NCBI GenBank assembly: GCA_038046625.1
Contig: JBBSVV010000003.1
Span: forward strand, 4,017 to 68,016
DNA from: an archaeon
Lineage (GTDB): Archaea > Iainarchaeota > Iainarchaeia > Iainarchaeales > Iainarchaeaceae
Length of the DNA: 64,000 bases
Direction of reading: 5' to 3'
Of the stretch, positions 1,843 through 60,646 are shown piece by piece. A model generated the notes under the pieces. It did no database searches. It saw nothing but the letters and a program-made list of their open reading frames with translations, and had not been told where the DNA came from. Each line of letters opens with the position of its first letter. Position 1 is the first letter of the stretch. A program made the position numbers and the translations under genes.

Positions 1843-1873
1843 CTTTTTTCTTTTCCCGGAGAAAAGAAAAAAG
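1843..1873. promoter_or_regulatory. Perfect palindrome CTTTTTTCTTTTC-ccgga-GAAAAGAAAAAAG immediately 5' of tRNA-Gly(GCC); candidate bidirectional promoter/oligo-T terminator element
   Basis: 12-13 bp inverted repeat seen directly. The same motif recurs at 3729, 3851, 3961, 22996 and 32538. Confidence 0.5.
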
Positions 1874-3850: not shown

Positions 3851-3880
3851 TTTTTCTTTTCGTGCAACGAAAAGAAAAAA
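3851..3880. promoter_or_regulatory. TTTTTCTTTTCG-tgcaa-CGAAAAGAAAAAA palindrome abutting the 3' end of tRNA-Val
   Basis: Perfect 12-bp inverted repeat 4 nt from the tRNA 3' end. Confidence 0.5.
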
Positions 3881-3960: not shown

Positions 3961-3988
3961 TTTTTTCTTTTCTTGCGAAAAGAAAAAA
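3961..3988. promoter_or_regulatory. TTTTTTCTTTTC-ttgc-GAAAAGAAAAAA palindrome immediately 5' of tRNA-Val
   Basis: Perfect 12-bp inverted repeat with a 4-nt spacer, 5 nt from the tRNA 5' end. Confidence 0.5.
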
Positions 3989-12765: not shown

Positions 12766-12801
12766 CGTATAAAAAACTTTTGCTGTTTTCGCACCGGCAC
12801 G

Positions 12802-12853
12802 CCGGAAACCGCCGGCGGTACGGTGTACTATCTTCGCCTTTGGGCTCGATAGT
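12802..12853 (+). repeat. Structured repeat element, copy A: CCGGAAACCGCCGGCGG module + ACTATCTTCGC-N-GGGCTCGATAGT core
   Basis: Near-identical modules at 19705-19752 and 43774-43825. The core also occurs at 46761-46788, 34380-34392 and 60523-60552. Flanked by direct repeats GCACCGGCA (12791-12799 and 12863-12871). A TATAAAAAA-like box lies ~25 nt upstream (12770-12781). Confidence 0.7.
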
Positions 12854-14813: not shown

Positions 14814-15004
14814 AGCGGGATTCAAAGAAGATTGTGAAGTTCTGTTCCCGCTGCGGCTCAACGGATTTGAAGCCGCTTTATTTCATGGAAGCAATCGACA
14901 ATAGAATGCAGTGCATGGGCTGCAATGTGATTGAATTCCCTGTTGAGGGCACTGAAAAGTTTCGGAAAGAATTTTTGGAGGGAAGTAAAAATGCCGGCAA
15001 ATAA
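14810..15004 (+). CDS. Small zinc-ribbon protein
   Basis: CSRCGS...CMGCN CxxC pairs; 64 aa. Confidence 0.3.
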   Translation: MKRDSKKIVKFCSRCGSTDLKPLYFMEAIDNRMQCMGCNVIEFPVEGTEKFRKEFLEGSKNAGK

Positions 15005-18000
15005 CGAGGAAATCGGCACGGTAATAAGCAGCATGGATGGCCCTTCGCCGAGCGCATTGGATGTTGTTATTTATTCCGGAAAATTGCACCGCGGCCAGTT
15101 CGTTGAATTGGATTACAGTGAAGGAACCCTGGTTGCGCTTGTAACCGATGTAGTGAAAACAAACAGGTATTTTGAGCGCGTTGAATCCGTGAAGGAGTTC
15201 GAGCGTTCCGGCACGAAATTGTTCGAGCAGTTTCCTACTGCGGAGTGGGAATACCTTGTTGCAAAAACAAGGCCGCTTGGAGTTTATGATAAGGGCTTGA
15301 TTAAGCGCTCGACTTTTCCGCCTTCACCGGGCACAAAGGTTCGGGTTGCGGAGAAGGAAACGCTTGAAAAGTTTTTGGGCCTTGACCTTGAAAAGGGTTT
15401 GATGCTTGGGGAAATCGAGCACCACGGGGTTTTTGTGAAATTAAATCTCTCCCGCCTTTTCCAGAAGCATCTTGCGATTCTCGCAATGAGCGGCGCCGGG
15501 AAAAGCTATTTGGTTTCTGTTTTGCTCGAGGAATTGTTGGAGAGGAAGAAGGAGGATGGGCGCCTCGCTGTGATTGTGATGGACGCGCACGGCGAATACC
15601 GTTCTTTTGCCGAGCCTGTTCCCGACAAGAAGCACAGCGATTTTTCCTCAAAATCCAGGTTTGTGCGCGCCTCGGAAATCCAGATTGGTGTCCCAAAGCT
15701 TTCAATCGGTTTGCTTGCCGCGCTGATTCCTGGCCTTTCGGCGCCGCAGAAGCGTGACCTCGCAAGGGTTATTGAAAGATTGCGCAAGGAAATGAAAGAT
15801 GGCCTCGGGCCCTTTGACTTCAATGCGGTAAAGGCGGAGATTATGAAGGATTCTGAAATGAAGGAAGTAACAAAGATGTCTCTAATTGGGTGGATAATGT
15901 CCCTCGAGCAGCTTCACTTGTTTGGCAAGACTGATGCGCCCGGAATCAGCGATTTGGTGAAGCCGGGGCAGCTTACAATAATTGATTTGAGCGACGTGAT
16001 TGACCTTAAGAAGAAGCAGATTATTGTCGCGTATTATGCGCGCAAACTTTTTGATGAGAGGCGCGCAAAGCGTGTTCCTCCTTTCAGTATTGTTGTCGAG
16101 GAAGCGCATCAGTTCGCACCAGAAAGGGTTTCAAAAGAAGGTTCCATCAGCAAGCACGTGATTGAAACCATTGCCAGAGAAGGAAGGAAGTTCGGTGCGA
16201 GCATCTGTCTGATTTCGCAGAGGCCGGTTAACCTTTCAACTACGGCTTTGAGCCAGTGTGTTTCACCAGAAACTCAAGTGATTCTTTCAGACGGGCAGGA
16301 GTGTGCCATATCAGATTTCGAAAATAATTATTCCAAGACAAAATTAACAAGCTGCGATATTGAGAAAGGCAAATTGGAAGGGGCATATATTTCGCATTAT
16401 CAAAAAAATAATCCAAAGCAACAGGGGAAAAAATGCTTTGAAATAACTACTGTCGCAGGAAGACAATTAAAATGTACAGGCGACCACCCAATTTGGACAA
16501 AGGGAAAAGGATGGGTTAATGCGGCGGATTTAACTTTCAGCGATAAGGTGGCTATATTGCCGACAATTAAATCATATCCAGGGACTCCTGTTCTTGAAAT
16601 ATCTTCTGACTGCCTATCAGGTCTACTGCCTTCAACAATTAACAAGCAAAGATTGTTTGAAGAATTACAAGAAAAAGGTTTAATAGATAAAGAAATAGAA
16701 CCTCAAAAGATATTGGCTTTGGCGAGGCTCATCGGCCATATTTTTGGCGACGGTTCCCTGCATCCGCCTTACAAAAACAAACAGGGGCAGCATTCGCTGC
16801 GAATTACATTTTCAGGTTCGGAAGAAGATTTGCAGGAAATAAAAAACGATTTGGCATTTCTAGGCTTTAAGTCTGATCAAAAAATAAGCAGGCAAGTCAA
16901 AACTTCATATTCAAACTTTGTAAATTTTGGAAAAAGAAAAATTCACGGAACCTCAATATGTTTCAAAACTGGCATTGTAGGGCTTTGGGCTATTTTAAGA
17001 TTTTTGGGAGCTCCATTAGGGGATAAATCAAACACTAAAGTTTGTATGCCTAAGTGGATTTTAGATTCTCATATTTCCGTCAAAAGGGAATTCCTCTCAT
17101 CTTTGTGCGGAAGCGAATGTTCTGCGATAAGGTGGGACGGAAAATATCCTGATAGGCCTATTCTCCCATTTTCCAAGGTTGAATCGTTAAGCGGGAGCGG
17201 GCATTTGTATGCAAATAGTCTTATTTCTATGTTTCAAGATTTTGGAGTCAAGTCAAACTTATATGTAAGAGATTATGTGTGGAGAAAAGATGGCGCAAAA
17301 AGTCTGCAATTTATTATTTCGATAAATAGGTCGCGAAATAATTTGATTAATTTCTTGTCAAATGTTAACTATCGTTATGCTGTTAAAAAAAGAAGTGCGG
17401 GTTTGCATGTCTTAGAATATTTAAAATGGCTCAACATAAAACTTAATCAGAAAACAGGGCTGTTCAGCGAAGTAAATAAATCTGTCGGCGAAGTTGGTTC
17501 CAAGCAAACTTCATTGATTTATAAAATGCATAAGAAAGTTGTTGAAAACTGGGCAAGTATGGGTGTTGAAAAGTTACGACTCGCCCCGGCAGATAAAATA
17601 CCCGCTTATTCGTATTGGATAAAAGAAAAAACAGAGTCTCTTTCGGCTGGTTTAATTTGGGACGATGTAGAATATATTGAGCCCATTGTGCTTTCTGACG
17701 TAAGAGATATAACTGTTCCAAATCATCATTGTTTTTTTGCTAACGGATTTTTGACCCATAACTGCAACACCCACATTATTCTCCGTGTTACTAATCCTTA
17801 TGATTTGGACCACATCAAGCAGACCAGCGAGGGCATTGACCAAAGGACTGTTGACATGATTACTTCTCTCAGAACAGGCGAAGCCATAATTGTGGGCGAA
17901 GCCGTGAATTATCCCGTGTTTTTCAAGGTGCGCAAAAAAACCGTGCAGGATTCGCGGCACGAAAAGTCCCTCGAGGCTTCCGCTCTGGAGTTTGAGGAGA

Positions 18001-18041
18001 ACCGCGAGGAAAGGACAAAAGAACTTGATGATTTGCTGTGA
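14991..18041 (+). CDS. herA: HerA helicase (FtsK-HerA ATPase) interrupted by a 502-aa LAGLIDADG intein (nt 16257-17762)
   Basis: Walker A (AILAMSGAGKSYLV) and Walker B (IVVEEAHQFAP). The intein starts at Cys (SQ|CVSPETQVILSDG) and ends ...FLTHN|CNTHII, with LAGLIDADG blocks LIGHIFGDGSL / LSSLCGSECS. Start chosen at MPANNEEIG. Confidence 0.8.
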   Translation: MPANNEEIGTVISSMDGPSPSALDVVIYSGKLHRGQFVELDYSEGTLVALVTDVVKTNRYFERVESVKEFERSGTKLFEQFPTAEWEYLVAKTRPLGVYDKGLIKRSTFPPSPGTKVRVAEKETLEKFLGLDLEKGLMLGEIEHHGVFVKLNLSRLFQKHLAILAMSGAGKSYLVSVLLEELLERKKEDGRLAVIVMDAHGEYRSFAEPVPDKKHSDFSSKSRFVRASEIQIGVPKLSIGLLAALIPGLSAPQKRDLARVIERLRKEMKDGLGPFDFNAVKAEIMKDSEMKEVTKMSLIGWIMSLEQLHLFGKTDAPGISDLVKPGQLTIIDLSDVIDLKKKQIIVAYYARKLFDERRAKRVPPFSIVVEEAHQFAPERVSKEGSISKHVIETIAREGRKFGASICLISQRPVNLSTTALSQCVSPETQVILSDGQECAISDFENNYSKTKLTSCDIEKGKLEGAYISHYQKNNPKQQGKKCFEITTVAGRQLKCTGDHPIWTKGKGWVNAADLTFSDKVAILPTIKSYPGTPVLEISSDCLSGLLPSTINKQRLFEELQEKGLIDKEIEPQKILALARLIGHIFGDGSLHPPYKNKQGQHSLRITFSGSEEDLQEIKNDLAFLGFKSDQKISRQVKTSYSNFVNFGKRKIHGTSICFKTGIVGLWAILRFLGAPLGDKSNTKVCMPKWILDSHISVKREFLSSLCGSECSAIRWDGKYPDRPILPFSKVESLSGSGHLYANSLISMFQDFGVKSNLYVRDYVWRKDGAKSLQFIISINRSRNNLINFLSNVNYRYAVKKRSAGLHVLEYLKWLNIKLNQKTGLFSEVNKSVGEVGSKQTSLIYKMHKKVVENWASMGVEKLRLAPADKIPAYSYWIKEKTESLSAGLIWDDVEYIEPIVLSDVRDITVPNHHCFFANGFLTHNCNTHIILRVTNPYDLDHIKQTSEGIDQRTVDMITSLRTGEAIIVGEAVNYPVFFKVRKKTVQDSRHEKSLEASALEFEENREERTKELDDLL

Positions 18042-18191: not shown

Positions 18192-19691
18192 ATGCTCCCA
18201 ATTGGAAAGACTTTCCTGTCCCGCATCACTTACCTTTCGGAAAAGAGGCAGGTTGTTGCGGAGTTCTCGAATTCCTCGGAAAAAATTTCCAAGCGTTACT
18301 CTTTCTTTCCCCGTATGCATTTCCCGATGGAGGGGATTTCACAGGGTTCGCTGAAGGAGGTTTTGTCGCTTTATGATTCCAGGCGCTTCAAGGTTGATTT
18401 TGAGGAAAACCGTGCCGTGATTTTTGCCGCCACGTTTTCCGACCTGAAAAAAATAAATAATTTGCTTTCGGATTCCCTGGGCTTTTCCTCGAACCTCATT
18501 GAGCCTGAGAGGCAGTTTCTCATTGACAGGGGCTGGAGCTACTTTGATTCTTTCACTTTTTCTGCGGATGAGCCGCAGAGGGTTTCATCGCTTGATTTTC
18601 CTGATGTGGCGCTCGGCTTTCTCTCCGATTCCCTGCCCATGACGATGCGTGACCTCATTTCATCCAACAGGCAGCTGGCCAGGGAAATCGCGGGCCGCGT
18701 TTCCATGTCGAGGGTACTGCGTATCCCCCTATTGTCTTCGGAAATGCACAGGGCCGCTCCGGAGGTTTTTCTGGAGAATGTTTTTTTCGCTTCAAAAATG
18801 CCTGTCCCCATTTCTCCGGAAAAAAAGCAAAGCATTCCGTTGAGGGTTCCGCATAAGACGGAAATAGATTTTTCCGCGGTTACGCCGCTGCTCTTGTGCA
18901 GGCCGTTCTCGAATGCAGGCCCGGAGACAGTGAACTGTGCCTGCTGCAGGCCGGCTTCGCTGAATGATTTCAATGTCCTTGCGGATACAATTGTGAAGGC
19001 GCGTTTTTTGCGCGAGGGCGCGTATTTCAATTCCGCGTCTTCTTTTTGGGCGGAGCAGTTCCACGTTTCAGGCCGGGACAAGGATGCCAGGTCAAGGAGG
19101 CGCGCCGAGTATAATTACCAGTTTTTTCCCGTGGGGCCTTTTTCGCGGAATGAAACGGCGGAAATTCTTTTGGCGGATGCCGTTGAGCTGCAGGGGCAGG
19201 GCATTGCCGAAATTCTCGGCGTAACGGGGTGGAGCTGGTTTTGTTCACAGAAGGAAAGCGCATTTTCAAGGGAAACGAATGCCCTGCGCGAAACCATTTC
19301 TTCCCTTGAATCTTCCCTGGATAAGGAGCATACTTCCGTTGTTGCATCAAATGGCCTGTTTTTTTCGCAGGCGCTCGAGGCGCGGCTGGATTATTTTTAT
19401 AGGAAGATTTTCCTCGAAACCGCTTCCTCGATTTTGTGTTCGGTTTCCGGCGTGCTTTCCGACAGGTCTTCGGGCTTTTTCTCCCCAAAAATAGCTGTTC
19501 TGCTGGAAGTTGCTTCTTTCCGCATCCTCAAAGGTTTTGAGGAAATATGCTCCTCGAACGGCATTGCAAGGGTTTCCACGGGACCTTCAAAAGCCTTTGT
19601 GGACTCTTCCTCGGTTACGCGCATTTTGAAGGATTTTTCCGAGGCATACAAGTTGAATAGGCCGTTTGTAAGGCTCAAAACCCGTTTTTAA
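18192..19691 (+). CDS. Hypothetical Ser/Phe-rich 499-aa protein sitting between herA and rad50
   Basis: Long uninterrupted ORF with no strong competitor. No Mre11 phosphoesterase motifs and no other recognisable domain. Confidence 0.45.
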   Translation: MLPIGKTFLSRITYLSEKRQVVAEFSNSSEKISKRYSFFPRMHFPMEGISQGSLKEVLSLYDSRRFKVDFEENRAVIFAATFSDLKKINNLLSDSLGFSSNLIEPERQFLIDRGWSYFDSFTFSADEPQRVSSLDFPDVALGFLSDSLPMTMRDLISSNRQLAREIAGRVSMSRVLRIPLLSSEMHRAAPEVFLENVFFASKMPVPISPEKKQSIPLRVPHKTEIDFSAVTPLLLCRPFSNAGPETVNCACCRPASLNDFNVLADTIVKARFLREGAYFNSASSFWAEQFHVSGRDKDARSRRRAEYNYQFFPVGPFSRNETAEILLADAVELQGQGIAEILGVTGWSWFCSQKESAFSRETNALRETISSLESSLDKEHTSVVASNGLFFSQALEARLDYFYRKIFLETASSILCSVSGVLSDRSSGFFSPKIAVLLEVASFRILKGFEEICSSNGIARVSTGPSKAFVDSSSVTRILKDFSEAYKLNRPFVRLKTRF

Positions 19692-19704
19692 CAACCCTTT
19701 CGCG

Positions 19705-19752
19705 CCGGAAACCGCCGGCGGTAGGGCGACTATCTTCGCTTTGCTCGATAGT
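19705..19752 (+). repeat. Structured repeat element, copy B
   Basis: CCGGAAACCGCCGGCGGTAGGGCGACTATCTTCGCTTTGCTCGATAGT, just upstream of rpoK. A TTTTTAACAA TATA-like stretch lies ~25 nt upstream. Confidence 0.7.
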
Positions 19753-20238: not shown

Positions 20239-22272
20239 GATTTTTGTTGTCCCGTCATTTTCTTTTTCCCTTTCAAGCACGTAAAGCTTTCCTGATGCCG
20301 CATTCTCCATTTCCTTGTCATGCGTGATAATGAATATCTGCTCAATGAGTTCGGGCAGATGGTTGCGCATCATTTCGCTTAACTCGTGCACGGCATTCGA
20401 ATCCAAATTATGAGTGGGCTCATCCAGCATTATCCATCCAAGGTTCTGCGTGAGGACCAGAGAAACCGCTATCCGGATTGTTATGGCCGCGGCAGTCCTT
20501 TCACCTCCGGAAAGTATTCCCTCGACGCGTATCCACTCGCCGTTCCTTTGCCTCGCCATTATTTCGTAGCTGCCTTCATCCACAATTATTTTTGCGCTTG
20601 TTAAGTCCTTGTAAGGATAAACTTTTTCCCAGATTTCGTCCATTGCGTCGTTTATCGTTTCTATCATTGCGTTCCTCAGTTCGGCCTGTGTCGCTTTTAG
20701 CGCCTGCGTGAAGAGCGCGAGTTTTTCAACCGCGGTTTCGTTTGCCTTTATTGTTTTTTCGAGTTCTTTTGCCTGTTCAATGCCGCGCTTCATCATTTCC
20801 GCATTGTCGCGCATCTGCTTCAGAAGTTCTGAAGCAGCGCTTATTTCCGAGCTTGCTTTTGCCTTTTTTTCCCTGAGCAAAGCCATTTCTTCCCTTTGCC
20901 TGGCCATTTCCTTTTCGTCAAACCCTGTTTTGCGGATCATTTCCAGTGTTTGTTTGAGTTCCTTTTCGAGCGCGCTTTTCTGCTTTTCCTTTGCCTCCGC
21001 CTCTTTCGCGGCCTCGAAGATTTTTTTTGTTTCCTCGAGCTCCTGCTCGGTTTTCTTTTTGGCTTTTTTGTGCGCGTCTTTTTCCTTTTCGCGTTCCTCG
21101 AGCTCCTTTTCGTTCCTTTCGGTCTCTTCCTGAATTTCCCTTATTTTTGCGGTTATTTCGCGCTTTTGCCCCTCTAGCTCCTTTTCCAGCTTTTTCTTGT
21201 CATGCTCTTCCAGCGGCCTTTTGCACACGGGGCACTCGCTTCCCAGTTTTCCAGTTTCCTTTGCTGCCCTTGCGTTGGATTCGAGCAGGTTTTTTTGGAC
21301 CGCGAGCCTCTGCCTTGCCTTGGAAATTTTTTCCATTGTTTCTTTCGCGTTTTTTTCCGCCTTCAGGATTTTTTCCTCAATTTCCGAGTTTTCCTTCTGC
21401 TTTTCGCGCAACTCCTTCTCGGTTGCCTTTTTTTCCCCGATTTGTTTTCCAATCCTTTGGATGTCCTCTTTCAGTGCTTCCGTTCTGGATTTCGTTTTTA
21501 TTTCGAGTTCTTTAAGGAGGCGGTGTTCTCTTTCCTTTTTTTCCTGCTCCCCGAATTTTTCATCCTTTTGCTTCAGCTGCTTTTCGGTTTCCCCGAGCGC
21601 AACTTTTTTTTCCATGGCTTCTTTTTCCTTTTCCCGGATTTTTGTCTCGCGTTCCGCGAGCTCCTTTTCCGTGTCGCGCTTTTTGTGTTCCATGAGGAGG
21701 CTTTTCCTGTCTTCCGCCATTTTTTTTATCCGGTTTGCCAAAGTAACCGCGTTGGTGCGAACTTTTTCATAGCGGTCCAGGCCGAGCAGTTCATCGAATT
21801 TTTCCTTTCTTTGCGCGGGGCTCAGCTTCAGGAAGAAGTCTATTTGGTTTTGTTCGGAGTATATTGCGCGGCTGAACAAATCGTAGTTCACTTCGAGTAT
21901 TTCCTCTATTTTTTTGGTCACTTCGCTTGTTTTTGGCCCGGCAATTGTTTTGCCGTTTTCCTTTAGGCTTGCCTCGTTGATGCCGTTCCTTTTCAGCGTC
22001 CTTTCCACAAAGTATTCTTTTTTGTTGTAGTCGAACTCCATTTTCACTACGCTTTTTTCCGCCCTGAACGGCTTTGCCATTATTGTTTCGTCGAGGCTGA
22101 CCTTGCGCGCGTTAAGGCTCGGGAAGGTGCCGTAAAGTGCGAAGCATATGGCGTCTGTTACCGAGCTTTTTCCCGCGCCCATTTTTCCCACTATGACGTT
22201 CGTTCCCTTCACGAATTCCAAGTGGTTTTGGTGGTGGGTTTTCCAGTTCTCGAGGTAAATGCTTTTTATCAT
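20227..22272 (-). CDS. rad50: Rad50 ATPase (short, 681 aa) with a CxxC zinc hook
   Basis: N-terminal Walker A GKMGAGKSS. Zinc hook ECPVCKRPL in the middle of the K/E-rich coiled coil. C-terminal signature LSGGERTAAAI plus Walker B/D-loop MLDEPTHNLD. Confidence 0.8.
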   Translation of the reverse strand: MIKSIYLENWKTHHQNHLEFVKGTNVIVGKMGAGKSSVTDAICFALYGTFPSLNARKVSLDETIMAKPFRAEKSVVKMEFDYNKKEYFVERTLKRNGINEASLKENGKTIAGPKTSEVTKKIEEILEVNYDLFSRAIYSEQNQIDFFLKLSPAQRKEKFDELLGLDRYEKVRTNAVTLANRIKKMAEDRKSLLMEHKKRDTEKELAERETKIREKEKEAMEKKVALGETEKQLKQKDEKFGEQEKKEREHRLLKELEIKTKSRTEALKEDIQRIGKQIGEKKATEKELREKQKENSEIEEKILKAEKNAKETMEKISKARQRLAVQKNLLESNARAAKETGKLGSECPVCKRPLEEHDKKKLEKELEGQKREITAKIREIQEETERNEKELEEREKEKDAHKKAKKKTEQELEETKKIFEAAKEAEAKEKQKSALEKELKQTLEMIRKTGFDEKEMARQREEMALLREKKAKASSEISAASELLKQMRDNAEMMKRGIEQAKELEKTIKANETAVEKLALFTQALKATQAELRNAMIETINDAMDEIWEKVYPYKDLTSAKIIVDEGSYEIMARQRNGEWIRVEGILSGGERTAAAITIRIAVSLVLTQNLGWIMLDEPTHNLDSNAVHELSEMMRNHLPELIEQIFIITHDKEMENAASGKLYVLEREKENDGTTKISGA

Positions 22273-22368
22273 GCGAAAGAATTAGGTCTGGAAAAAGTTA
22301 AAATGGGAGTCTTGTGCCTTTTTGGGATTTATAGCAGGCCAATAAAATATTTTGGCGATATTTTTGGT

Positions 22369-22428
22369 CTGCTATCTAGCACCTGGCAGAGCAAAGCTCT
22401 GCCGGGCCTCGTACCCTACGGGTAGAAG
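22369..22428 (-). repeat. Structured repeat element, copy G (hairpin-module variant)
   Basis: The reverse complement aligns to 34270-34345. GTACCCGTAGGGTAC hairpin is shared. The second hairpin GGCAGAGC-tttg-CTCTGCC covaries with CGCAGAATC-ttct-GATTCTGC(A). Confidence 0.6.
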
Positions 22429-22471
22429 GAACCACATTAAAATGCCGAAAACTTTCGTGGTTTGCTATAAA

Positions 22472-22735
22472 TCAGAGCAGCGTCATACCCTCTATTTCCG
22501 CGTCCTCTACTTCTTTTAGTTTTTTCACTTCTTCAAGAACGCGGTCAATTGCCTTCTCGTCTTTCGAGTTAACCAGTATGCCGGCTTTTATTACTTCGAC
22601 GCCGAAGCCTATTGGTTCGCGTTTCACGTCCTTTACTTCGCCGCTTTTTATGCCCTTTACTGCCTTTACCGTTGCGTCAAGTTTTTCCAGGTCTTTGGCG
22701 TTTATTTTGAGAATTAGAAGCGTTTTGTCCGGCAT
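22472..22735 (-). CDS. ef1b: Elongation factor 1-beta (aEF-1beta)
   Basis: 87 aa; ...REPIGFGVEVIKAGILV... matches the archaeal EF-1beta guanine-nucleotide exchange domain. Confidence 0.7.
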   Translation of the reverse strand: MPDKTLLILKINAKDLEKLDATVKAVKGIKSGEVKDVKREPIGFGVEVIKAGILVNSKDEKAIDRVLEEVKKLKEVEDAEIEGMTLL

Positions 22736-22762
22736 CTTATCACGGGCTCAAATTAGGGCTGC

Positions 22763-22918
22763 TTACGGGCCTTCGAATCCGCATTCTTTGCACTTGTATA
22801 CGAGGCTTCTTTTGCGCGCATCCAAGCTGCGGTCTATTTTTGTGCCGCATCCAGGGCACTTGAACTCAATGAAATCGTCCGTGAGAATTTTGTTGGTTGT
22901 AATGCATGTTTTTATCAT
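22763..22918 (-). CDS. Small zinc-ribbon protein (51 aa), in the position usual for the Zn-finger gene beside ef1b in archaea
   Basis: Hand-translated: MIKTCITTNKILTDDFIEFKCPGCGTKIDRSLDARKRSLVYKCKECGFEGP. CPGC...CKEC zinc ribbon. Below the ORF-track length cutoff. Confidence 0.45.
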   Translation of the reverse strand: MIKTCITTNKILTDDFIEFKCPGCGTKIDRSLDARKRSLVYKCKECGFEGP

Positions 22919-22995
22919 TGAAAAAACCTTATTTTTAGCGGCATTATTTGTCTAGTATTCTCTATTGAGTTACCTTTAAAAAGGTTGATTTCAGC

Positions 22996-23021
22996 CTTTT
23001 TCTTTCTTGCGAGAAAGAAAA
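22996..23021. promoter_or_regulatory. TTTTTCTTTCT-tgcg-AGAAAGAAAAA palindrome upstream of the tRNA-like 5' fragment
   Basis: Same inverted-repeat family as the motifs flanking the tRNAs. Confidence 0.45.
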
Positions 23022-23103
23022 ACGCTGGCGAAAAAGAAAGAGACGGGGCATATTTTTGGCCATAGAACCTTTAATTAAGTGTTTTTCACCCATTTTTTTG
23101 CAC

Positions 23104-24286: not shown

Positions 24287-24461
24287 CTGCACTTTCACGC
24301 AGAATCCTTGATTCTGCTGAAACCTGCACTAAAAAGAAAGAGTGCCGGAAAAAGAAAAGACCCCTGTTTCTGGCTCGGCAAGCCGTGCTTGGCCGGTTTC
24401 AATGTGGCCAGGGCTCGCTTTCTTTTAGGCAAGGAATTAATACTCGCAAGTAGTTGTATTT

Positions 24462-32183: not shown

Positions 32184-32534
32184 ATGGGCAAAACGCTTTT
32201 GGCTGTTTTGGGCATCGGGAAGGGCACATGGGGGCATGTTGCCCGGCTTATTTCCGAGGAAAAGTTCGACAAGGTACTGCTTATTTCCAACGAGTGGGGC
32301 AAGGAAAACTTTAAGCCGTTGAAGGAGTGCGACTGGATAATGATTAACAACCGCGCGGGCTTCGAGGTAATAAAGGAAGAAATCAAATCCAAGTTGCCTG
32401 AAAAGGATGATTTGGTGCTCTCGCTGATAAGCGGCTCCGGAAGGGAGCACATGGCTGTCCTTGCTGCCATAAAGGACAAGAAGCTCGAATTCAGGATTGT
32501 TATCCTTACGGGCGAAGGAACCAAGTACTACTAA
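32184..32534 (+). CDS. Hypothetical Rossmann-like small protein
   Basis: MGKTLLAVLGIGKGTWGH... Gly-rich N-terminal loop; 116 aa. No confident family. Confidence 0.35.
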   Translation: MGKTLLAVLGIGKGTWGHVARLISEEKFDKVLLISNEWGKENFKPLKECDWIMINNRAGFEVIKEEIKSKLPEKDDLVLSLISGSGREHMAVLAAIKDKKLEFRIVILTGEGTKYY

Positions 32535-32537: not shown

Positions 32538-32566
32538 CTTTTTCTTTTCGTTGACGCGAAAAGAAA
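32538..32566. promoter_or_regulatory. CTTTTTCTTTTCG-ttgacg-CGAAAAGAAA palindrome
   Basis: Same family as the tRNA-flanking palindromes. Followed by two short hairpins. Confidence 0.45.
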
Positions 32567-32628
32567 CCGGGCAGAACAAAAGTTCTGCACGGCCACGCAA
32601 AATCAAAAGATTTTGCATGGAAGCTGTA
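32567..32628 (+). ncRNA. Candidate small structured RNA: two adjacent AAAA-looped hairpins bracketed by tRNA-type palindromic flank motifs
   Basis: GCAGAAC-aaaa-GTTCTGC (32571-32588) and GCAAAATC-aaaa-GATTTTGC (32597-32616). A/T-rich GAAAAGAAA motifs on both sides (32557-32566 and 32630-32660). Confidence 0.3.
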
Positions 32629-34142: not shown

Positions 34143-34240
34143 ATTAACAGCAATTGCCTATAAAGTGTTAAAAACACTTGGAAATCACTTCATTACATGA
34201 CAAGAGTCGCTGTTCTCGAGAAGGACCGTTGCATCACAAC

Positions 34241-34402
34241 AGTTTCGTCTGTTGGGTGCGAGTACTATCTCCTTGTACCCGTAGGGTACGAGGCCTCGCA
34301 GAATCTTCTGATTCTGCAAGGTCGCTTGGGCTCGATAGTAAGTTTGGTTATGGGTGTGAGGCACGATACTTCGCAGTTGACCTGCTTTGCGTTTGGTGAT
34401 GT
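34241..34402 (+). repeat. Structured repeat element, copy E (long form), inserted just upstream of abce1 and preceded by a diverged duplicate of the first 44 nt of abce1
   Basis: Starts ACAACAGTTTCGTCTGTTGGGTGCGA. Contains GTACCCGTAGGGTAC, CGCAGAATCttctGATTCTGC and GGGCTCGATAGT. 34197-34240 repeats 34406-34449 with 5 synonymous differences. Confidence 0.7.
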
Positions 34403-34405
34403 GAA

Positions 34406-36184
34406 ATGACTCGAGTAGCTGTTCTGGAAAAGGACCGTTGCATCAATGGCACGGGCTGTGATTACATATGCGGCCACGTGTGTCCAGTGAACCGCGCGGG
34501 AAAGGACTGCATTGTTCTAGATGAGGTTACAAACAAGCCCGTCATCAGCGAGGAGTTATGCATCGGCTGCAACATATGCGTAATTAAATGCCCCGTGGAT
34601 TGCATTTACATCGAGAACCTTGTCCAGGAACTGAACGAGAATCCTGTGCATCGCTTCGGCGAGAACGCGTTCAGGTTCTACAGGCTCCCCACAATAAGGA
34701 ACGGAGAAGTAGTTGGGTTGATTGGCAGGAACGGAATAGGAAAAAGCACTATCCTGAAAATAATTTCTGGCCAGCTGGTTCCAAATTTGGGGGATTACAA
34801 TTCAAAAGGCTCTTACGATTCGGTGATAAATTTTTTCAAGGGGAAGGAATTGCAGCGGCTTTTTTCCTCGCTGAAAGACAAGCGGATAAAGGTTTCTTAC
34901 AAGCCGCAGAACATAACTGATTTGCCCAAGGCGGCGAAAGGCACTGTGCGCGAACTCCTGAAAAAAACCGATGAGCGCAAAAAACTTTCCGAGGTTTCGG
35001 AGTTGCTGGGCCTCGGAAAAATTTTGGACAGGGAACTCTCGCACTTGAGCGGAGGAGAATTGCAAAGGGTTGCGATTGCCGCGGCCTCATTGAAGGATGC
35101 TGATTTGTATGCTTTTGATGAGCCAACTTCTTATTTGGATGTGAGGGAGCGCCTCAATGCCTCCAAGGTTTTGCGCGGTCTTGCGGAATCCGGAAAGGCG
35201 GTTGTTTTGATTGAGCATGACCTCGCGGTTCTTGATTACTTGAGCGATTATGTGCACCTTCTTTACGGAAAAAAATCGGTTTACGGAATAGTTTCAAAGC
35301 CGAAGAGCGTTCGCAATGGCATTAACGAGTTTTTGGAGGGCTTTGTGAAGGATGAGAATGTTCGGTTCAGGAGCACAGAGCTGAAATTTGAGGTCAAGCC
35401 TTCCACGGATTTCAGGAAAAAGAAAGTTATTGCTAGCTACCCGGAACTCAAAAAGTCCTTCAAGGGATTTTCCCTCGAGGCTGAGGCGGGGGATTTGCGC
35501 GAGGCCGAGGTTCTGGGAATAATGGGCCCCAATGCAATAGGCAAAACGACTTTCGTGAAGATGCTTGCCTCCGTTGAGAAGCCAGATTCAGGGAAGATTG
35601 ATTTTTCCATGCATGTTTCCTACAAGCCACAGTACCTTGTGCCTGAAAAGGGCGTTACTGTTGGTGATTTTATTGATTCTCAGGACCTTGATCTCTCGGT
35701 TTTCAAGAATGAGGTTGACCGAAGGTTGGCAATTACAGAGCTGGAAAATCACTTGCTTGAGGAATTGAGTGGCGGCGAGCTCCAGAAGATTGCTGTCGGA
35801 GTGGCGCTTTCGCGCACGAATTGCGAGCTCGTTCTTTTGGATGAACCAACCGCTTTTGTTGATGTTGAAGATAGGCTGAACATGGCTGATGCAATCCGTT
35901 CCGTAACAGATGCGAAAAAGAAGATTTGCATGGTTGTTGACCACGACATTTTGTTCCAGGATTATGTTTCTGACAGGTTGATGGTTTTTTCTGGCGAGCC
36001 CTCCGTGAAGGGCTTTGCGGGCGCCGCAATGTCAATGCATGACGGGATGAATTCTTTCCTCAAATCGGTTGGAATTTCTTTCAGGCGCGACCCGGAAAGT
36101 GGAAGGCCGCGTGCAAACAAGTTGCATTCGCAGCTCGACCAGGCGCAGAAGAAGAAAGGTGAGTATTACTATCTCGTGGATTGA
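34406..36184 (+). CDS. abce1: ABCE1 / RNase L inhibitor (Fe-S cluster + twin ABC ATPase)
   Basis: N-terminal Cys-rich ferredoxin-like domain (CINGTGCDYICGHVCPV ... CIGCNICVIKCP). Two Walker A/B + LSGGE ABC cassettes. Confidence 0.85.
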   Translation: MTRVAVLEKDRCINGTGCDYICGHVCPVNRAGKDCIVLDEVTNKPVISEELCIGCNICVIKCPVDCIYIENLVQELNENPVHRFGENAFRFYRLPTIRNGEVVGLIGRNGIGKSTILKIISGQLVPNLGDYNSKGSYDSVINFFKGKELQRLFSSLKDKRIKVSYKPQNITDLPKAAKGTVRELLKKTDERKKLSEVSELLGLGKILDRELSHLSGGELQRVAIAAASLKDADLYAFDEPTSYLDVRERLNASKVLRGLAESGKAVVLIEHDLAVLDYLSDYVHLLYGKKSVYGIVSKPKSVRNGINEFLEGFVKDENVRFRSTELKFEVKPSTDFRKKKVIASYPELKKSFKGFSLEAEAGDLREAEVLGIMGPNAIGKTTFVKMLASVEKPDSGKIDFSMHVSYKPQYLVPEKGVTVGDFIDSQDLDLSVFKNEVDRRLAITELENHLLEELSGGELQKIAVGVALSRTNCELVLLDEPTAFVDVEDRLNMADAIRSVTDAKKKICMVVDHDILFQDYVSDRLMVFSGEPSVKGFAGAAMSMHDGMNSFLKSVGISFRRDPESGRPRANKLHSQLDQAQKKKGEYYYLVD

Positions 36185-43224: not shown

Positions 43225-43800
43225 TCACCCACTCTGGCCGAATGTGACTTTTGTTTCGGATCCGATTTTGTCCACTTTTGCAATGAATATGGCGCCCTGC
43301 ACTCCGGTGTTTACCTCACTCGGCGAGCATGAGAATGAGGCTCCTGCATCGAGCTCTTTCGTGCATTTTTTGTCTGCATCAGGATCCAAATCCAAGGCCA
43401 AGTCATCATCCGCATTGTTTTTGCATTCTTCGGGGACGCGGGCTGAAATCTGTTCAAGCCCCGCATCAAGCGGAACAACAAGGTATGAGAAACCTATCCC
43501 TGCAAAGTTCGTGGACGGTGGGGCCGCAGGAACGCAGTAAATTTTTGATTGCGGCGGAATAACAATTTCTATGGTCTGCCTTGTTCCGGCGCCGGATATT
43601 GAAACGTATTGTGCCGCGTTCACGAGCTTGTCGGCAGAGGCGCGGAGCTTCGCGAGGTTTGCGGTGTCGTTCATTGCATTGCTCGCAATGTCCGCGTTCG
43701 GCTGTATTATTGCGACTATGTAAAGCAGTGAAACCACGAGTATGAGCAGAAATTCTATGCTCGCCTGCCCCCGCCGGAAACCGCCGGCGGTATGGTGCCC
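43225..43800 (-). CDS. Pilin-like protein whose N-terminal signal peptide (RRGQASIEFLLILVV) is encoded by repeat element C; start codon unresolved
   Basis: Class III signal motif RRGQAS-IEFLLIL. No in-frame ATG within 50 codons upstream. The coding frame runs through the CCGCCGGCGG palindrome. Confidence 0.4.
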   Translation of the reverse strand, partial: GHHTAGGFRRGQASIEFLLILVVSLLYIVAIIQPNADIASNAMNDTANLAKLRASADKLVNAAQYVSISGAGTRQTIEIVIPPQSKIYCVPAAPPSTNFAGIGFSYLVVPLDAGLEQISARVPEECKNNADDDLALDLDPDADKKCTKELDAGASFSCSPSEVNTGVQGAIFIAKVDKIGSETKVTFGQSG

Positions 43801-43915
43801 TATCTTCGGTTTTGGCCTCGATAGGTCTTGCTTCGCAATTTTCCCGTTCAAAATATCAAGTTCCACAACAGTTTCGGCTGTTGGGTGCGATAGCCCATGC
43901 TGTCGCATGGACTTG
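43774..43915 (+). repeat. Structured repeat element, copy C (module 1 + hairpin module CAACAGTTTCGGCTGTTGGGTGCGATAGCCCATGC), with a diverged duplicate of the prepilin-peptidase gene 3' end
   Basis: CCGGAAACCGCCGGCGGTATGGTGCCCTATCTTCGGTTTTGGCCTCGATAGG, then a ~45-bp direct repeat (43827-43870 versus 43916-43960). Confidence 0.65.
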
Positions 43916-43940
43916 GCGTTGCTTCGCAACGCAGGCTTAT

Positions 43941-45065
43941 TCAAATAATCAAGTTCCATATCAAGTCTCCCGTAAACTGAAGCGCAATGTACGCAATGAG
44001 GATTGCGGGAACAAATGCCGCGGTTTTTCTCACGACCAGTTGCTTCGGCGCATTTCCCTGCAAAGCTTTTTTCCTGAGTTCTTTCGCCGCCTCTTCCGTA
44101 AGCCCTCCCGCCTCGCGCGGGCTCGAAAACACGTTCCCAGGGACTTTGTATGCCTTGAGGGCGTTTTCAATTTTATTATCCATTAACTGCTTAATAACAC
44201 TTTTTATGCTCGGCGCCTCGACAGGAATTATTTTCCCTCCTTTTTCCACAAGGTAATAATCCGGAATCATTCCTTCCGTGATTTTTGCGGTTTCAATTTT
44301 TTCCCTGAACGCAAATTCGCGGCTCTCTGCATAAAGTTTCCACAGGAAATAAACGCACACCAGCGGAACCGCTATCGCTATCGAGTTGAACAAAAGGTTT
44401 TGCGCCGAAACCAGCAGGCCGGCAACGGCTGAAATTATTATTGCCGCGTTCCTCGCCTTTTTTGGGATGAAAGCTGCGGCAACCATTATGGGGAGCACCC
44501 AGAACAATTCAATCCCGGATTTTGAAAGAATGGTTTCAACGCCAGCGGCAAAAATTCCGGCGCCGAGAATGCCAGTTGCTTTTGATGCTACGGCTTTCAT
44601 CGTCCTCGCGAAAACTTCTTTGTGCTTCAATGAGGCCGTAAGCGCCATCAGGATTCCGAGCGGCAGCATGGAAAATATTGATGCCACTATGAGCGTTACC
44701 GCAAAAATCGGCAGCGGGGTTGTTGAAAGCAATTGGCCTTGCAGCCCGAGCGCGTCCCTGAGGATTCCGTAATTTACGGGGTTGATTATTGCGAGCGCTG
44801 TAACAAGCTTGACATCGCCTCCCGCCCACGCGCCCATCCTGTAGAGCGCGTATGAAACCACAAAGGCAATTGTGGCAGCGGCGAATGCAAATAATATTGG
44901 TTCGATTGCCTGTGCATTCAGCGATTCAAAAATTTTTAGTATTATGCCGGTTCCGGCTATTGTGTAAGTGAGCCTGTTCGGAACAATCCGTTTCCTGAGG
45001 TCGGTATAGGTTGCAATGAGCAGTGTTATGAGTGTTAAAAAAAAGTATAGGGAGGAAAACACCAT
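43941..45065 (-). CDS. Prepilin/pre-archaellin peptidase (A24 family, PibD/FlaK-like) with a C-terminal extension
   Basis: Polytopic membrane protein. N-terminal DLRKRIVPN aspartyl-peptidase motif and a second Asp in ...AWAGGDVKL. Confidence 0.65.
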   Translation of the reverse strand: MVFSSLYFFLTLITLLIATYTDLRKRIVPNRLTYTIAGTGIILKIFESLNAQAIEPILFAFAAATIAFVVSYALYRMGAWAGGDVKLVTALAIINPVNYGILRDALGLQGQLLSTTPLPIFAVTLIVASIFSMLPLGILMALTASLKHKEVFARTMKAVASKATGILGAGIFAAGVETILSKSGIELFWVLPIMVAAAFIPKKARNAAIIISAVAGLLVSAQNLLFNSIAIAVPLVCVYFLWKLYAESREFAFREKIETAKITEGMIPDYYLVEKGGKIIPVEAPSIKSVIKQLMDNKIENALKAYKVPGNVFSSPREAGGLTEEAAKELRKKALQGNAPKQLVVRKTAAFVPAILIAYIALQFTGDLIWNLII

Positions 45066-46702: not shown

Positions 46703-46788
46703 CACAATAGTTTCGTCCGAGAATGCGCCTCGGAAGGGTGCCAAGATTGTTGGGTACGACTGCTATCTTCGCCGTGGGGCTCGATAGT
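46703..46788 (+). repeat. Structured repeat element, copy D, at the junction between the two tandem flaJ-like genes
   Basis: ...GGGTACGACTGCTATCTTCGCCGTGGGGCTCGATAGTAA. Flanked by imperfect direct repeats TTCATCCCCTCC (46687-46698) / TTCATCCCACC (46814-46824) that contain the stop/start junction GGGATGAAA. Confidence 0.6.
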
Positions 46789-46813
46789 AAAAACATTTGC
46801 GTGTGTCATTTTT

Positions 46814-57934: not shown

Positions 57935-58177
57935 GCAAATATGCTATAATTTTAGCCTTAAGGATTTATGAGGCATCAATGATGCCTCGGCAACCGCTCC
58001 TTCAACGAATTGAACAATGGGAGAAAAGGCCGCAAATATTCATTTGTTCAATTCGTTGCCGGCGAGCACCCTTCCAGAACGGAGTTCTGGGGGCCTCGCA
58101 AAGCAATTGCTTTGCAAGGTGGCCGGGGTGAATGTTTTTAATATCTTCCAAATACACGTATTTCAGGGTTTATTGGC

Positions 58178-58927: not shown

Positions 58928-60596
58928 GCTTTACGGCCGGGCAGTCGTTCAGCAATTCAAGCGCCTCCTTCATTGTTTCGGCCACGTAAACAAACCCGTA
59001 TTTTCTCTTTTGCCTTGTGCCCCTCATGCTGAACAGCATTTCCTGCACCAGTTTTCTGTCCTCGTGCAGGCCGAACCTGCGTTCGGCTTCAGGTTCCGGC
59101 ATTTCCATTGCGGCCAGGTTGTGCCTGTGAATCAGCGCAATTATGTCGTCCGCGAGCTTCGGCGCGTCCGCAACGCCCATTGTTTCGGCGCAGCGCTTTA
59201 TTCCGGCAAGGCTTACAGCGCCAAGGCTTTTCAGGAGCATCCATTCCTCGAAGTAAGGCCTTGCCTTCAGCCCCTCCTTTTTCTTTTCGCATAATCCTGA
59301 AATTTTTTCCGCAATAATCTCCAGCCTTTCAATGAAGCGCTCCTCGTTTCCTGATTCCAAAGCTATTTTTTCCAGGTTTATTGCGGTGAGCTGAAGTACG
59401 CCGTCCGCGTTCCCGGTCAATACTCCAAACTGGTACGCGGTGGTTTTTTCGCTTGAGTTGTTCAGCACCAGTGCGTTGTTGAGGCCGCTTTTTTCGAGCA
59501 GCTTGAGCTGGTACTTGGAGTCGATTGATACGCTAAGTTCGAACTCTTCCGGGTTCGAGGAAAGCAGCATTGCCGCAATGGCAGTCGCGTTCTCCTTTCT
59601 CTTTGAAAGGCCTTCCCATTCGTAGCCGCTGAAGAGCGCAAGTTCGGCGCAGCGCTTCCCCGTAATAGAGAATATTTTTTCTGTCTCCAAGATTTCTTCG
59701 CGGAGTTTCCTCGGGTTCACGGGCTTTTCCGGCGCGATGGAAAAATTGAATGCCTTCAGCGTAACCGGGTTCGTGCAGAACCTGTCGAGTTTTGCGGCCT
59801 CGACAGGCGTCGCATAAGTTTTTTCCCCTGCAAAGAATTTCGAGTGCGCAAAAGTTTTCGTGGAAAAATCTTCGGCACCGTAAATGTGTATCGTGCCGTT
59901 GAAATGCAGTTCCCTCGCGTCCTTTGTTATGGCTGAGAGCCAGTTGTACTCCCTGAGTATTTCCCTGTCCTCGAACAATCCTGCGTTCAGCCTCTTTTTC
60001 ACCTCGAATACCGGGAGGCCGAGGCGCACGTACTGGCCGTGTATCGGCTCGTGGCCGTATTCAAGCAGCTTCACGTTCACCATTTCGCGTATTATATGGG
60101 TGTTCAGATACCCTATTTTCAGGTCCTTTATCTTGTCCTCCACTTCGCTCCCGATTTTTTCTGCAACGTGCCTGCTGATGCCTGTTTCCTTGAGCAGCGA
60201 CTTGATTATGTTGCCGCGGTCGAAAGACTCGAGCTTTTCGCGTGAAGTGAATACCTTGAGTTCCTCGAATGAAATGAATGTTTTTGCCGCCTCGGGATTG
60301 AGCTTTTCGAGCGTTTCCGCGGCCTTTCTCCTGAGCTGCTTTTCCCCGCCTTCAAAAGATTCGAGCTCCTTGATTACCTTCACCACTTCCCACTTAGTGG
60401 CGCCGCTCTCCTGGCATTCGAACGCTATCCTCTGTATTACTTCGCTGATGGGTTTTTTCTCTTCCACAGATGCTTTTAGTTCAAAAAAGTTCTTTAAATT
60501 GCCGCATCCTCTTGTATTTTTTACTATCGAGCCCTCAAAAGGCGAAGATAGTTGCCCCAACGGGTCGGCAGCAAGAAATGTTGGGCGTATATTCAT
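58902..60596 (-). CDS. ATP-cone-containing, ribonucleotide-reductase-like protein (function uncertain); the annotated N-terminus runs into repeat element F
   Basis: ATP-cone-like segment (...HVAEKIGSEVEDKIKDLKIGYLNTHIIREMVNVKLLEYG). No clear glycyl-radical or CxxC tail was seen. Confidence 0.35.
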   Translation of the reverse strand: MNIRPTFLAADPLGQLSSPFEGSIVKNTRGCGNLKNFFELKASVEEKKPISEVIQRIAFECQESGATKWEVVKVIKELESFEGGEKQLRRKAAETLEKLNPEAAKTFISFEELKVFTSREKLESFDRGNIIKSLLKETGISRHVAEKIGSEVEDKIKDLKIGYLNTHIIREMVNVKLLEYGHEPIHGQYVRLGLPVFEVKKRLNAGLFEDREILREYNWLSAITKDARELHFNGTIHIYGAEDFSTKTFAHSKFFAGEKTYATPVEAAKLDRFCTNPVTLKAFNFSIAPEKPVNPRKLREEILETEKIFSITGKRCAELALFSGYEWEGLSKRKENATAIAAMLLSSNPEEFELSVSIDSKYQLKLLEKSGLNNALVLNNSSEKTTAYQFGVLTGNADGVLQLTAINLEKIALESGNEERFIERLEIIAEKISGLCEKKKEGLKARPYFEEWMLLKSLGAVSLAGIKRCAETMGVADAPKLADDIIALIHRHNLAAMEMPEPEAERRFGLHEDRKLVQEMLFSMRGTRQKRKYGFVYVAETMKEALELLNDCPAVKLSLKDDSS

Positions 60597-60646
60597 TTGT
60601 CGACCCGTTGTCCGCCGTGGGCCTGCGGCGCGAAACTGTTGTTCGG
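60523..60646 (-). repeat. Structured repeat element, copy F (minus-strand orientation)
   Basis: The reverse complement reads GAACAACAGTTTCGCGCCGCAGG...GGGGCAACTATCTTCGCCTTTTGAGGGCTCGATAGTAAAA. Confidence 0.6.

Follow-up and report, generated by a model that had tools for sequence, protein, structure and literature searches.

Nested double-hairpin repeats with conserved structure and variable sequence in an Iainarchaeota genome

The window analyzed here, a 64-kb stretch of archaeal DNA, contains several types of small hairpin repeat. Their neighbors are housekeeping genes: among the 20 flanking genes scanned are NurA, HerA, Rad50, EF-1beta, Pelota and ABCE1, together with a prepilin peptidase, pilus genes, a MiaB-like enzyme and topoisomerase I. 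The ABCE1 gene (34406-36184) is identical to one on the MAG GCA_964365115.1, and its relatives are annotated as Diapherotrites/Iainarchaeum. No transposase, reverse transcriptase or integrase genes were seen in the 64-kb window, nor was a gene for the Y1 transposase RAYT.

Two of the repeats, copies E and G, were described in a first-pass annotation of this DNA, and both sequences as quoted there are found in the window. Each is an M4-type double hairpin, composed of a hairpin A and a hairpin B (Table 1). Copy E reads CCTT GTACCC-GTA-GGGTAC GAGG + CCTC GCAGAATC-TTCT-GATTCTGC AAGG. Copy G, read on the minus strand from 22429 to 22382, is CCTT CTACCC-GTA-GGGTAC GAGG + CCCG GCAGAGC-TTT-GCTCTGC CAGG, followed by TGCTAGATAGCAGACC. 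A 20-mer common to both copies, TACCCGTAGGGTACGAGGCC, is found at exactly two places in the window and in none of 100 shuffles. The remainder of the interval originally assigned to copy G (22366-22381) belongs to the host hairpin repeat, as one of its arms, and the copy is inserted between GGTT and TGCTA of this arm. The first hairpin, said to be identical in E and G, differs by one base (GTACCC in E, CTACCC in G), and the outermost stem pair of G is broken. In the second hairpin, where both arms had been reported to change with pairing preserved, pairing is indeed kept, and E and G differ in the apical 2-3 pairs and in the loop, with one indel; the arms are not changed throughout, the basal GCAGA/TCTGC being common to both. 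A further hairpin reported at 32571-32588 was confirmed and forms one half of a tandem double hairpin.

Table 1. Coordinates of hairpin repeats and associated features in the window.
Feature	Position	Strand	Remarks
H1 (CGCCGGAAACCGCCGGCGGTA) + M2 composite	12800..12853	+	
H1 + M2 composite	19703..19752	+	downstream of gene 18192-19691
H5-type host of copy G	22326..22473	.	two foldback units ATAGCARACC-N25-GGTYTGCTAT
Copy G, M4-type double hairpin	22382..22429	-	hairpin A 22407-22429, hairpin B 22382-22406
Solo hairpin GCAGAATC-CTT-GATTCTGC	24299..24317	+	12 nt past tRNA-Arg
Fourth double hairpin	32567..32620	-	contains the 32571-32588 hairpin; comes after T-rich/A-rich hairpin 32541-32566
Upstream copy of 40-nt direct repeat	34197..34236	+	first 13 ABCE1 codons, ancestral start position
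H3 hairpin module before M2	34235..34261	+	CACAACAG-TTTCGT-CTGTTG-GGTGCGA
M2 host hairpin of copy E	34264..34339	+	ACTATCT^...TCGCTTGGGCTCGATAGT; copy E at CTATCT^TCG
Copy E, M4-type double hairpin	34271..34321	+	hairpin A 34271-34293, hairpin B 34294-34321
Downstream copy of 40-nt direct repeat	34406..34445	+	functional ABCE1 start
H1-M2 + H3 composite	43772..43940	+	antisense reading: ~57 in-frame extra codons, leader peptide of pilin-like gene
H3 (+insert)-M2 composite	46703..46790	+	M2 46762-46788 empty in window
Third double hairpin	58070..58119	+	CCTT CCAGAAC-GGA-GTTCTGG GGG + CCTC GCAAAGC-AATT-GCTTTGC AAGG; inside loop of CCGGC/GCCGG hairpin
H3 (70-nt insert in loop) + M2 composite	60520..60643	-	upstream of ATP-cone gene

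A structural scan of the window yielded 11 single units (both strands counted; 2.05 in shuffles) and four tandem double hairpins (0.0 in shuffles). Outside the window, double hairpins were found in Ca. Iainarchaeum andersonii (two copies; L005) and in the syntenic relative L071 (four or five). Ten double hairpins from these three Iainarchaeota genomes have the frame CCTT-(stem-loop)-GRGG followed by CCTY-(stem-loop)-MAGG in common, and their stems differ almost completely. Each half can be written as CC-n-x-(6-8 bp stem)-(3-4 nt loop)-(stem)-x'-n'-GG, in which the x.x' position is conserved and non-Watson-Crick; the two halves abut, giving a module of about 50 nt. Conservation is seen at the stem base (CCTY GCA...TGC RAGG); turnover is fast in the apical pairs and in the loop, with the apical positions always paired. 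The window and Ca. I. andersonii have the same hairpin A (TACCCGTAGGGTAC). The solo hairpin next to tRNA-Arg has the stem of hairpin B of copy E in a different frame. The T-rich/A-rich hairpins that neighbor some copies are a motif separate from the double hairpin.

Two sequences cannot carry a claim of significant covariation, as had been made from E and G. The covariation is, however, present across the ten double hairpins (10 copies from about 150 kb of the window, L005 and L071). These were aligned by hand according to their structure and N-padded, since the variable stems could not be aligned by MAFFT. In this alignment 92.9% of the paired cells are filled by pairs compared to 71.7% in shuffles, counts that are biased towards pairing because the alignment was fitted to the structure and several copies were found by the structural scan. 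Both sides have changed in 18 of the 24 pairs, and in none has only one side changed. The covariation score of 0.543 (0.174 for shuffled alignments) was reached by 0 of 500 shuffles, and the signal is lost when the partners are slid. At the fourth pair, hairpin A retains a U.G (8 U.G and 1 G.U in the nine copies scored), and hairpin B retains a mismatch (9 of 10 copies). A scan that used only the frame (central motif GRGGCCTY) found at least 8 pairs on both sides at 3 of 11 sites, compared to 0.2% of random positions. Since the frame alone still predicts double hairpins, the finding of a conserved structure with variable sequence holds. The pair counts and the frame-only scan thus support the compensatory change proposed in the first-pass annotation, and support a double hairpin of variable sequence that is under structural constraint.

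Complementary arms could also be palindromic by origin, if the stems were made by fold-back or template-switch DNA synthesis and pairing were a mutational by-product with no selection on structure. The nearly always perfect complementarity of the arms and the lack of pairs that vary on one side point in this direction, as does the occurrence of the GCAGAATC/GATTCTGC stem in different frames at 34298 and 24299. The same can be said of a strain comparison: the MAG contig L062 is 99.85% identical to the window, with four differences in 2664 nt, all of them within the 148-nt element that contains copy G. Three of the four (22385, 22403, 22404) cluster in the frame of hairpin B and change CCTG..CGGG to CCTT..GAGG; four other MAG segments are 100% identical to the window. 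Palindrome correction should, however, erase the non-Watson-Crick position 4 that is kept in nearly all copies, and the frame and tandem arrangement are conserved across species. We consider such a purely mutational origin of the stems improbable.

The double hairpin is always nested in, or adjoins, other hairpin repeats (M2, H5 and H1-like). In M2 it is located at CTATCT^TCG; this site is occupied by copy E in the window, by a different double hairpin in L071 (20794-20843) and also by a double hairpin in the strain represented by contig L006. In the H5 arm, both L005 copies lie between GGTT and TGCTA like copy G. The H5 host of copy G comprises 148 nt, is bounded by terminal inverted repeats of 15 nt (GATTTATAGCAGGCC / GGTTTGCTATAAATC) and adjoins the EF-1beta stop codon. 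Two loci of Ca. I. andersonii match it at 86% identity over 141 nt, and no further DNA similarity to the window was found around them. The other repeat modules are H1 (CGCCGGAAACCGCCGGCGGTA), M2 (ACTATC-TTCG..CTCGATAGT, outer pairs A-T, C-G, T-A or G.T) and H3 (CAACAG/CTGTTG, with the pairing-keeping variants CCACAG/CTGTGG in L070 and CAACCG/CGGTTG in L072). The H1, M2 and H3 stems are likewise kept through compensatory change.

Contig L006, from Hainich groundwater, is 99.2% identical to positions 45141-46768 of the window. Its M2 is filled (ACTATCT followed by CCTTGTACCCGTAGGGTACGAGGCCTCGCAGAATCT...), whereas the same M2 (46762-46788) is empty in the window; a scaffold gap of the MAG lies exactly at this site. 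A chimeric assembly as the source of the filled site is unlikely, because the two loci have only about 7 nt in common at the junction. At the orthologous site after gene 32184-32534, the window and L071 contain double hairpins with unrelated stems, and L070, L072 and L011 contain none. No strain polymorphism was observed at the 58070 and 12800 loci among the contigs retrieved. As judged from these alignments, the comparison of strains and related species shows mobile behavior. The concentration of all differences between the window and L062 in the G element marks this element as a hot spot, in keeping with mobility. The identical hairpin A and the same-site double hairpins in two species could, on the other hand, reflect purifying selection for a function.

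Such a function might be exerted by RNA, and the first-pass annotation had indeed read the covariation as a signature of selection on RNA rather than on DNA or protein binding. Covariation is no proof of RNA, because it is equally expected for a mobile DNA that needs a single-stranded hairpin, and also where quasi-palindromes undergo correction by template switching within a strand. The two strands are, moreover, hard to tell apart. The frame CCTT..GAGG/CCTC..AAGG is self-reverse-complementary, and six of the ten copies are two-fold pseudo-symmetric inverted dimers of one asymmetric unit, hairpin B being an inversion of the hairpin A unit. Either strand therefore carries one wobble hairpin and one mismatch hairpin. 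Folding energies are alike on both strands and neither is consistently better. The counts of G.U versus A.C are mixed: hairpin A favors the strand of the first-pass annotation and hairpin B the opposite one, where it has five G.U pairs that are A.C on the other strand. This preference for G.U on one strand in hairpin B is found in all four sequence types, and the own strand of the 46703 composite contains three G.T pairs. These one-strand wobble pairs show folding of a specific single strand; RNA would also explain them.

In more concrete terms, the double hairpin could be a cis-acting UTR structure (a protein site, or an exonuclease block that stabilizes the mRNA) or part of a small RNA. The strong covariation, the conserved frame and the conserved non-canonical position 4 would all be expected of such a molecule, and the same holds for the one-strand G.U pairs of hairpin B, the folding z-scores of -3.9 to -7.0 and the CUUG-type loops found in some copies. 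The position after gene 32184-32534 is occupied in both the window and L071 despite full turnover of the stems, and the E, 19703, 32567 and 60643 loci are probably inside transcribed regions. The location of other copies fits less well. Host composites of the H3/M2 type are oriented without bias with respect to neighboring genes (sense 5, antisense 4, ambiguous 2). One double hairpin in L071 (1638-1689) is perhaps outside any mRNA, since it lies between divergent genes and upstream of what by eye appears to be a TATA box. The module is missing from the orthologous site in three of five relatives and polymorphic between near-identical strains, and the two-fold symmetry gives no strand a consistent advantage. 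At the G locus no T-run terminator follows the hairpins; in 22000-23000 no G+C-rich stem with a T-run overlaps the G element, and an intrinsic-terminator reading was rejected. At the gathering score, Rfam 15 returned only four tRNAs in the window and nothing in L005 or L006, and at permissive thresholds the regions 22280-22500 and 34180-34420 produced nothing but chance matches to microRNA and Y-RNA models (E of at least 1). With strands that fold about alike, polymorphic insertion, unoriented hosts and no Rfam family, the preference for RNA over DNA could not be upheld. A functional RNA is a possible but rather unlikely explanation of the module. It overlaps with mobile DNA, as REP-like mobile DNA can gain RNA-level effects secondarily; an RNA-level role of this kind, secondary or alternative, would be possible for the double hairpin, at a similarly low probability.

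The host repeats of the H3/M2 type behave as insertions between direct target duplications of 24-57 nt. The duplication measures 40 nt in the window, 24 nt in L070, 25, 29 and 29 nt in L072, and 57 nt in L071. Microhomology of 1-5 nt to the element ends is found at the insertion junctions. A flanking-repeat test of all window copies was clearly significant only for E, and no target duplication was found for the double hairpin module proper (copies E, G and L006). The duplications are too long and too variable to fit a classical transposase.

In the window the 40-nt repeats flank a 169-nt H3-M2(+module) element at ABCE1. A 70-codon ORF opens at the upstream repeat, crosses the element and stops at a TGA (34407-34409) that overlaps the real ATG. 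Empty ABCE1 sites are present in the syntenic relatives L011 and L071, where the Pelota-ABCE1 spacer is just 52-58 nt long. Independent insertions into ABCE1 occurred after codon 8 in L070 (24 nt duplicated) and after codon 7 in L072 (29 nt). Of the two other L072 insertions, one is located in a promoter/TATA region (29 nt duplicated) and one at the 3' end of EF-1beta, where the 25-nt duplication ends just past the stop codon. The ABCE1 duplications begin at the start codon or a few nucleotides before it, and the mRNA looks leaderless or short-leadered. In all three lineages the upstream ORF is open through the element and its stop is at or beside the true ATG (ATGA, TGAgtgtATG, TGAATG). The two copies of the duplication differ at five positions, all synonymous, in the window and in L070. 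In the closest ABCE1 homolog (P0002), VLEKDRC and, in another frame, an H3-like stretch are encoded by an N-terminal extension. By this arrangement the duplication apparently restores the ABCE1 start codon, and an upstream ORF ending at the real ATG would allow termination-reinitiation. In the pilin-like gene, the composite at 43772-43940 contributes about 57 leader codons compared to 6-9 residues in the orthologs; the leader peptide is probably cleaved off.

By form, the closest analogs are double-hairpin elements (DHEs) from the mitochondria of Allomyces (Paquin et al. 2000, as described in PMC2800124) and other repetitive hairpin-forming elements of organelles. Hairpin-forming repeats, GC clusters among them, occur in fungal, sponge and algal organelle genomes (PMC2800124). 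Like the module, DHEs consist of two adjacent hairpins, are defined by structure more than by sequence and have no known enzyme. They insert into intergenic DNA, other repeats and occasionally coding regions, are optional between close relatives and show no flanking duplication of the element proper. The resemblance is one of form and does not imply descent: DHEs reside in organelle genomes of eukaryotes and not in an archaeal chromosome, and there is no sequence similarity. Unlike DHEs, the repeats described here have the frame CCTT..GRGG/CCTY..MAGG, a conserved non-canonical fourth pair and hosts with 24-57 nt duplications.

For DHEs and their kin both DNA-level and RNA-mediated mobility have been proposed, and an RNA intermediate was suggested for the Allomyces DHEs because flanking duplications are absent (PMC2800124). 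The archaeal module, too, might move via an RNA intermediate, either retro-inserted or intron-like, and the covariation would then reflect an RNA structure needed for mobility. This would agree with the lack of a target duplication of the double hairpin itself, with the variable length of the direct repeats that flank the hosts, as in target-primed insertion, and with duplications that start at or near the start codon of an apparently leaderless or short-leader ABCE1 mRNA or, at EF-1beta in L072, end just past the stop codon. The L072 duplication that spans a promoter/TATA region, however, should not be transcribed, and no reverse transcriptase is seen in the window. An archaeal bulge-helix-bulge intron was rejected by inspection, as no exon-exon helix is present beside the boundaries ACTATCT^CCTT...AAGG^TCGC or GGTT^CCTT...CAGG^TGCTA. 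Movement through RNA thus appears quite doubtful to us.

Several other groups of elements (REP/BIME/REPIN, MITEs, Rickettsia palindromic elements and IS200/IS605 derivatives) have single features in common with the module, and each fails at least one defining test. REP, BIME and REPIN sequences are bacterial repeats mobilized by RAYT, and REPs have secondary effects on mRNA; we know of no RAYT in archaea. They resemble the module in being imperfect palindromes of 20-40 nt, often in inverted pairs, at gene ends and in intergenic DNA, with compensatory stem evolution and arrays of alternating orientation; the H5 arrays of L005 are BIME-like. REPs are, however, sequence-conserved within a genome and carry a GTAG or CGTC tag. 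The module has variable stems that differ from copy to copy, its hairpin A 20-mer occurs twice in 64 kb, and in place of a tag it has the frames CCTT/GAGG and CCTY/MAGG, with GTAG confined to the loop and stem of hairpin A. REPIN units pair with each other, whereas the two units here do not.

MITEs (in bacteria the nested Correia, ERIC/IRU and RU; in archaea Sulfolobus SM and haloarchaeal elements) are likewise small, non-autonomous, intergenic, nestable and strain-polymorphic. Terminal inverted repeats of at least 10 nt, as expected of a MITE, are present in the host of copy G (15 nt) and absent from the double hairpin itself. They are defined by terminal inverted repeats that match a parent insertion sequence and by a fixed duplication of 2-10 nt. 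The double hairpin has neither, its ends pairing only as CCTT/AAGG, and the duplications of the H3/M2 composites are long and variable. Rickettsia palindromic elements are hairpin repeats in frame within protein-coding genes, comparable to the extended pilin-like leader and to the open frame through the element at ABCE1. They are 100-150 nt long, sequence-conserved and translated in mature proteins, whereas the insertions here are tolerated at gene ends. PATEs derived from IS200/IS605 have subterminal hairpins that are recognized as single-stranded DNA, and no target duplication; the one-strand wobble pairs would be compatible with such single-strand folding. Insertion of PATEs takes place 3' of a fixed tetra- or pentanucleotide, and their left-end and right-end hairpins are conserved within a family. 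The module differs in having only T^T-like junctions and variable stems, and no TnpA gene was found in the window.

A CRISPR array was dismissed, since neighboring H5 units run in alternating orientation and the 25-nt "spacers" between their arms are kept at different loci and in different species. A tRNA-like identity was dismissed as well, with ARAGORN returning only the four true tRNAs. In public collections the exact hairpin A 20-mer was found only in Ca. I. andersonii (two copies) and in one Hainich groundwater contig. Viral contigs scanned with five patterns gave only chance or unrelated matches.

An explanation has to account for the observed structure and its covariation, for sites that are filled in some genomes and empty in others, for nested insertion and for the long duplications. 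We lean, with some reserve, towards a family of nested, structure-defined, non-autonomous mobile DNA hairpin modules. We propose that the module lands in or beside other hairpin repeats without a target duplication of its own. Only copies able to fold when single-stranded would keep spreading or persisting, which would account for the conserved pairing. The single-stranded form would most simply be single-stranded DNA at replication forks. In addition, quasi-palindromes could be corrected by template switching inside the hairpin. The module, with no target duplication and terminal inverted repeats of at most 4 nt, matched no known DNA transposition chemistry, which speaks against mobile DNA, as do the absence of a transposase, reverse transcriptase or integrase gene from the 64 kb and the small sample of ten copies. 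The H3/M2 hosts may have inserted by replicative template switching between hairpin-prone repeats, or by another route without a classical transposase, because their duplications are long and variable and the microhomology at the junctions is short.

Small hairpin repeats such as REP, MITE and organellar elements are well studied in bacteria and organelles. In the papers searched we found no account of such repeats for DPANN archaea, including Diapherotrites/Iainarchaeota. The double hairpin belongs to a known kind of element, here in an archaeal phylum that has received little study, and the insertion signature of the family is unusual. Only tentatively would we go further and see in these Iainarchaeota (DPANN) repeats an undescribed class of mobile elements, structure-defined and sequence-hypervariable, which would spread without a classical transposase, makes 24-57 nt duplications and, in separate lineages, has repeatedly hit the first 7-13 codons of the essential ABCE1 gene, with apparent rescue by a duplicated start and possible reinitiation. 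The family is a clean case of structure that is kept while sequence turns over, with direct evidence of gain and loss at the strain level. The long, variable duplications with microhomology constitute an insertion signature unlike standard transposition. Its mechanism, if worked out, would bear on the build-up of selfish DNA in very small, streamlined archaeal genomes.

The elements are also of practical relevance, as they break assemblies and mislead gene callers. Contig ends fall exactly in these repeats, as does a scaffold gap. The false 70-residue ORF upstream of ABCE1 and the N-terminal extensions of ABCE1, T2SSF, pilin and ATP-cone proteins are examples of misled gene prediction.

The start of ABCE1 is present in two copies of 40 nt (34197–34445), which differ by five mismatches, all five of them synonymous, and which both encode the peptide MTRVAVLEKDRCI. 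From the upstream ATG, an open reading frame of 70 codons crosses the repeat element and terminates in an ATGA overlapping the real ABCE1 start. The ABCE1 start of the related contig L070, which has its own insertion, follows the same pattern, with a 24-nt duplication and five differences that are synonymous. In a second related contig, L072, a 44-nt element composed of the hairpin modules H3 and M2 (342–435) sits at the 3' end of EF-1beta. The duplication at this insertion comprises 25 nt and repeats the last seven codons together with the stop codon. The corresponding spacer after EF-1beta in the window contains an unrelated H5/double-hairpin element in place of H3-M2.

The leader of the pilin-like gene gains approximately 57 in-frame codons, which are the antisense reading of a repeat composite (43772–43940); leaders of orthologues are just 6–9 amino acids long. 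The gene also has a second ELD(Y/I)LN copy, at GTG 43866, which hints at a further target duplication that has diverged.

A comparison of the window with the MAG contig CAYIOV010000029 yielded only four differences in 2664 nt (22359, 22385, 22403 and 22404). All four fall within the G element, the H5-type repeat next to the EF-1beta stop codon that carries double-hairpin copy G. Three of them alter the base of the hairpin B stem, with pairing on the + strand preserved. The window element is 86% identical to array loci in Ca. Iainarchaeum andersonii (AQRS01000024); other DNA similarity to it was not found. The array (2500–2750 of that contig) consists of 20-nt palindromes, GGTYTGCTAT-C-TAGCARACC, in alternating orientation, separated by conserved linkers of 25–26 nt, and is in this respect similar to BIMEs. 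One of its units contains the double hairpin.

In a further set of hairpins, the 5' arm is rich in T and the 3' arm is rich in A (TTTTTCTTTTC...GAAAAGAAAAA). Because the T-run is met first on both strands, these hairpins look like bidirectional terminators, a function predicted from their sequence. A CCTGCACTAAAAAGAAAAG-like motif is often located 3' of them and is kept in L070 and L072. In the GCAGAAT(C)-based hairpins adjacent to tRNA genes, the stem is that of hairpin B in double-hairpin copy E, in an unlike frame. Intein-bearing genes are included in the table.

Hairpins and genes in the window
Feature	Position	Strand	Remarks
T-rich/A-rich hairpin	1843–1873		tRNA gene adjoining
T-rich/A-rich hairpin	3851–3879		tRNA gene adjoining
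T-rich/A-rich hairpin	3961–3988		tRNA gene adjoining
T-rich/A-rich hairpin	22997–23022
T-rich/A-rich hairpin	32541–32566		after protein-gene stop codon
GCAGAAT(C)-based hairpin	75–95		directly 3' of tRNA-Gly
GCAGAAT(C)-based hairpin	24299–24317		directly 3' of tRNA-Arg
Pilin-like gene	43225–43959	-	class III signal, ...RRGQASIEF
HerA (DUF87)	14931–18041	+	intein inside
T2SSE/pilus ATPase	47965–51204	-	intein with LAGLIDADG endonuclease and HTH domains

Hairpin repeats are break points in assembly. The MAG contains 100-N gaps at the M2 hairpin (window 46760–46772) and at a duplicated pilin-gene stretch (45455–45509), and several Logan contigs (among L002–L004 and L068) terminate within hairpin B of copy E or within the double hairpin at 58070. 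Annotation is affected as well. Longest-ORF readings push the N-termini of the T2SSF protein (45732–46796) and of the ATP-cone protein (58902–60596) into repeats, and the public MAG annotates the 70-residue ORF (34197–34409) as a gene. Both extensions and this ORF are probably annotation artefacts that arise from the stop-free hairpin repeats.
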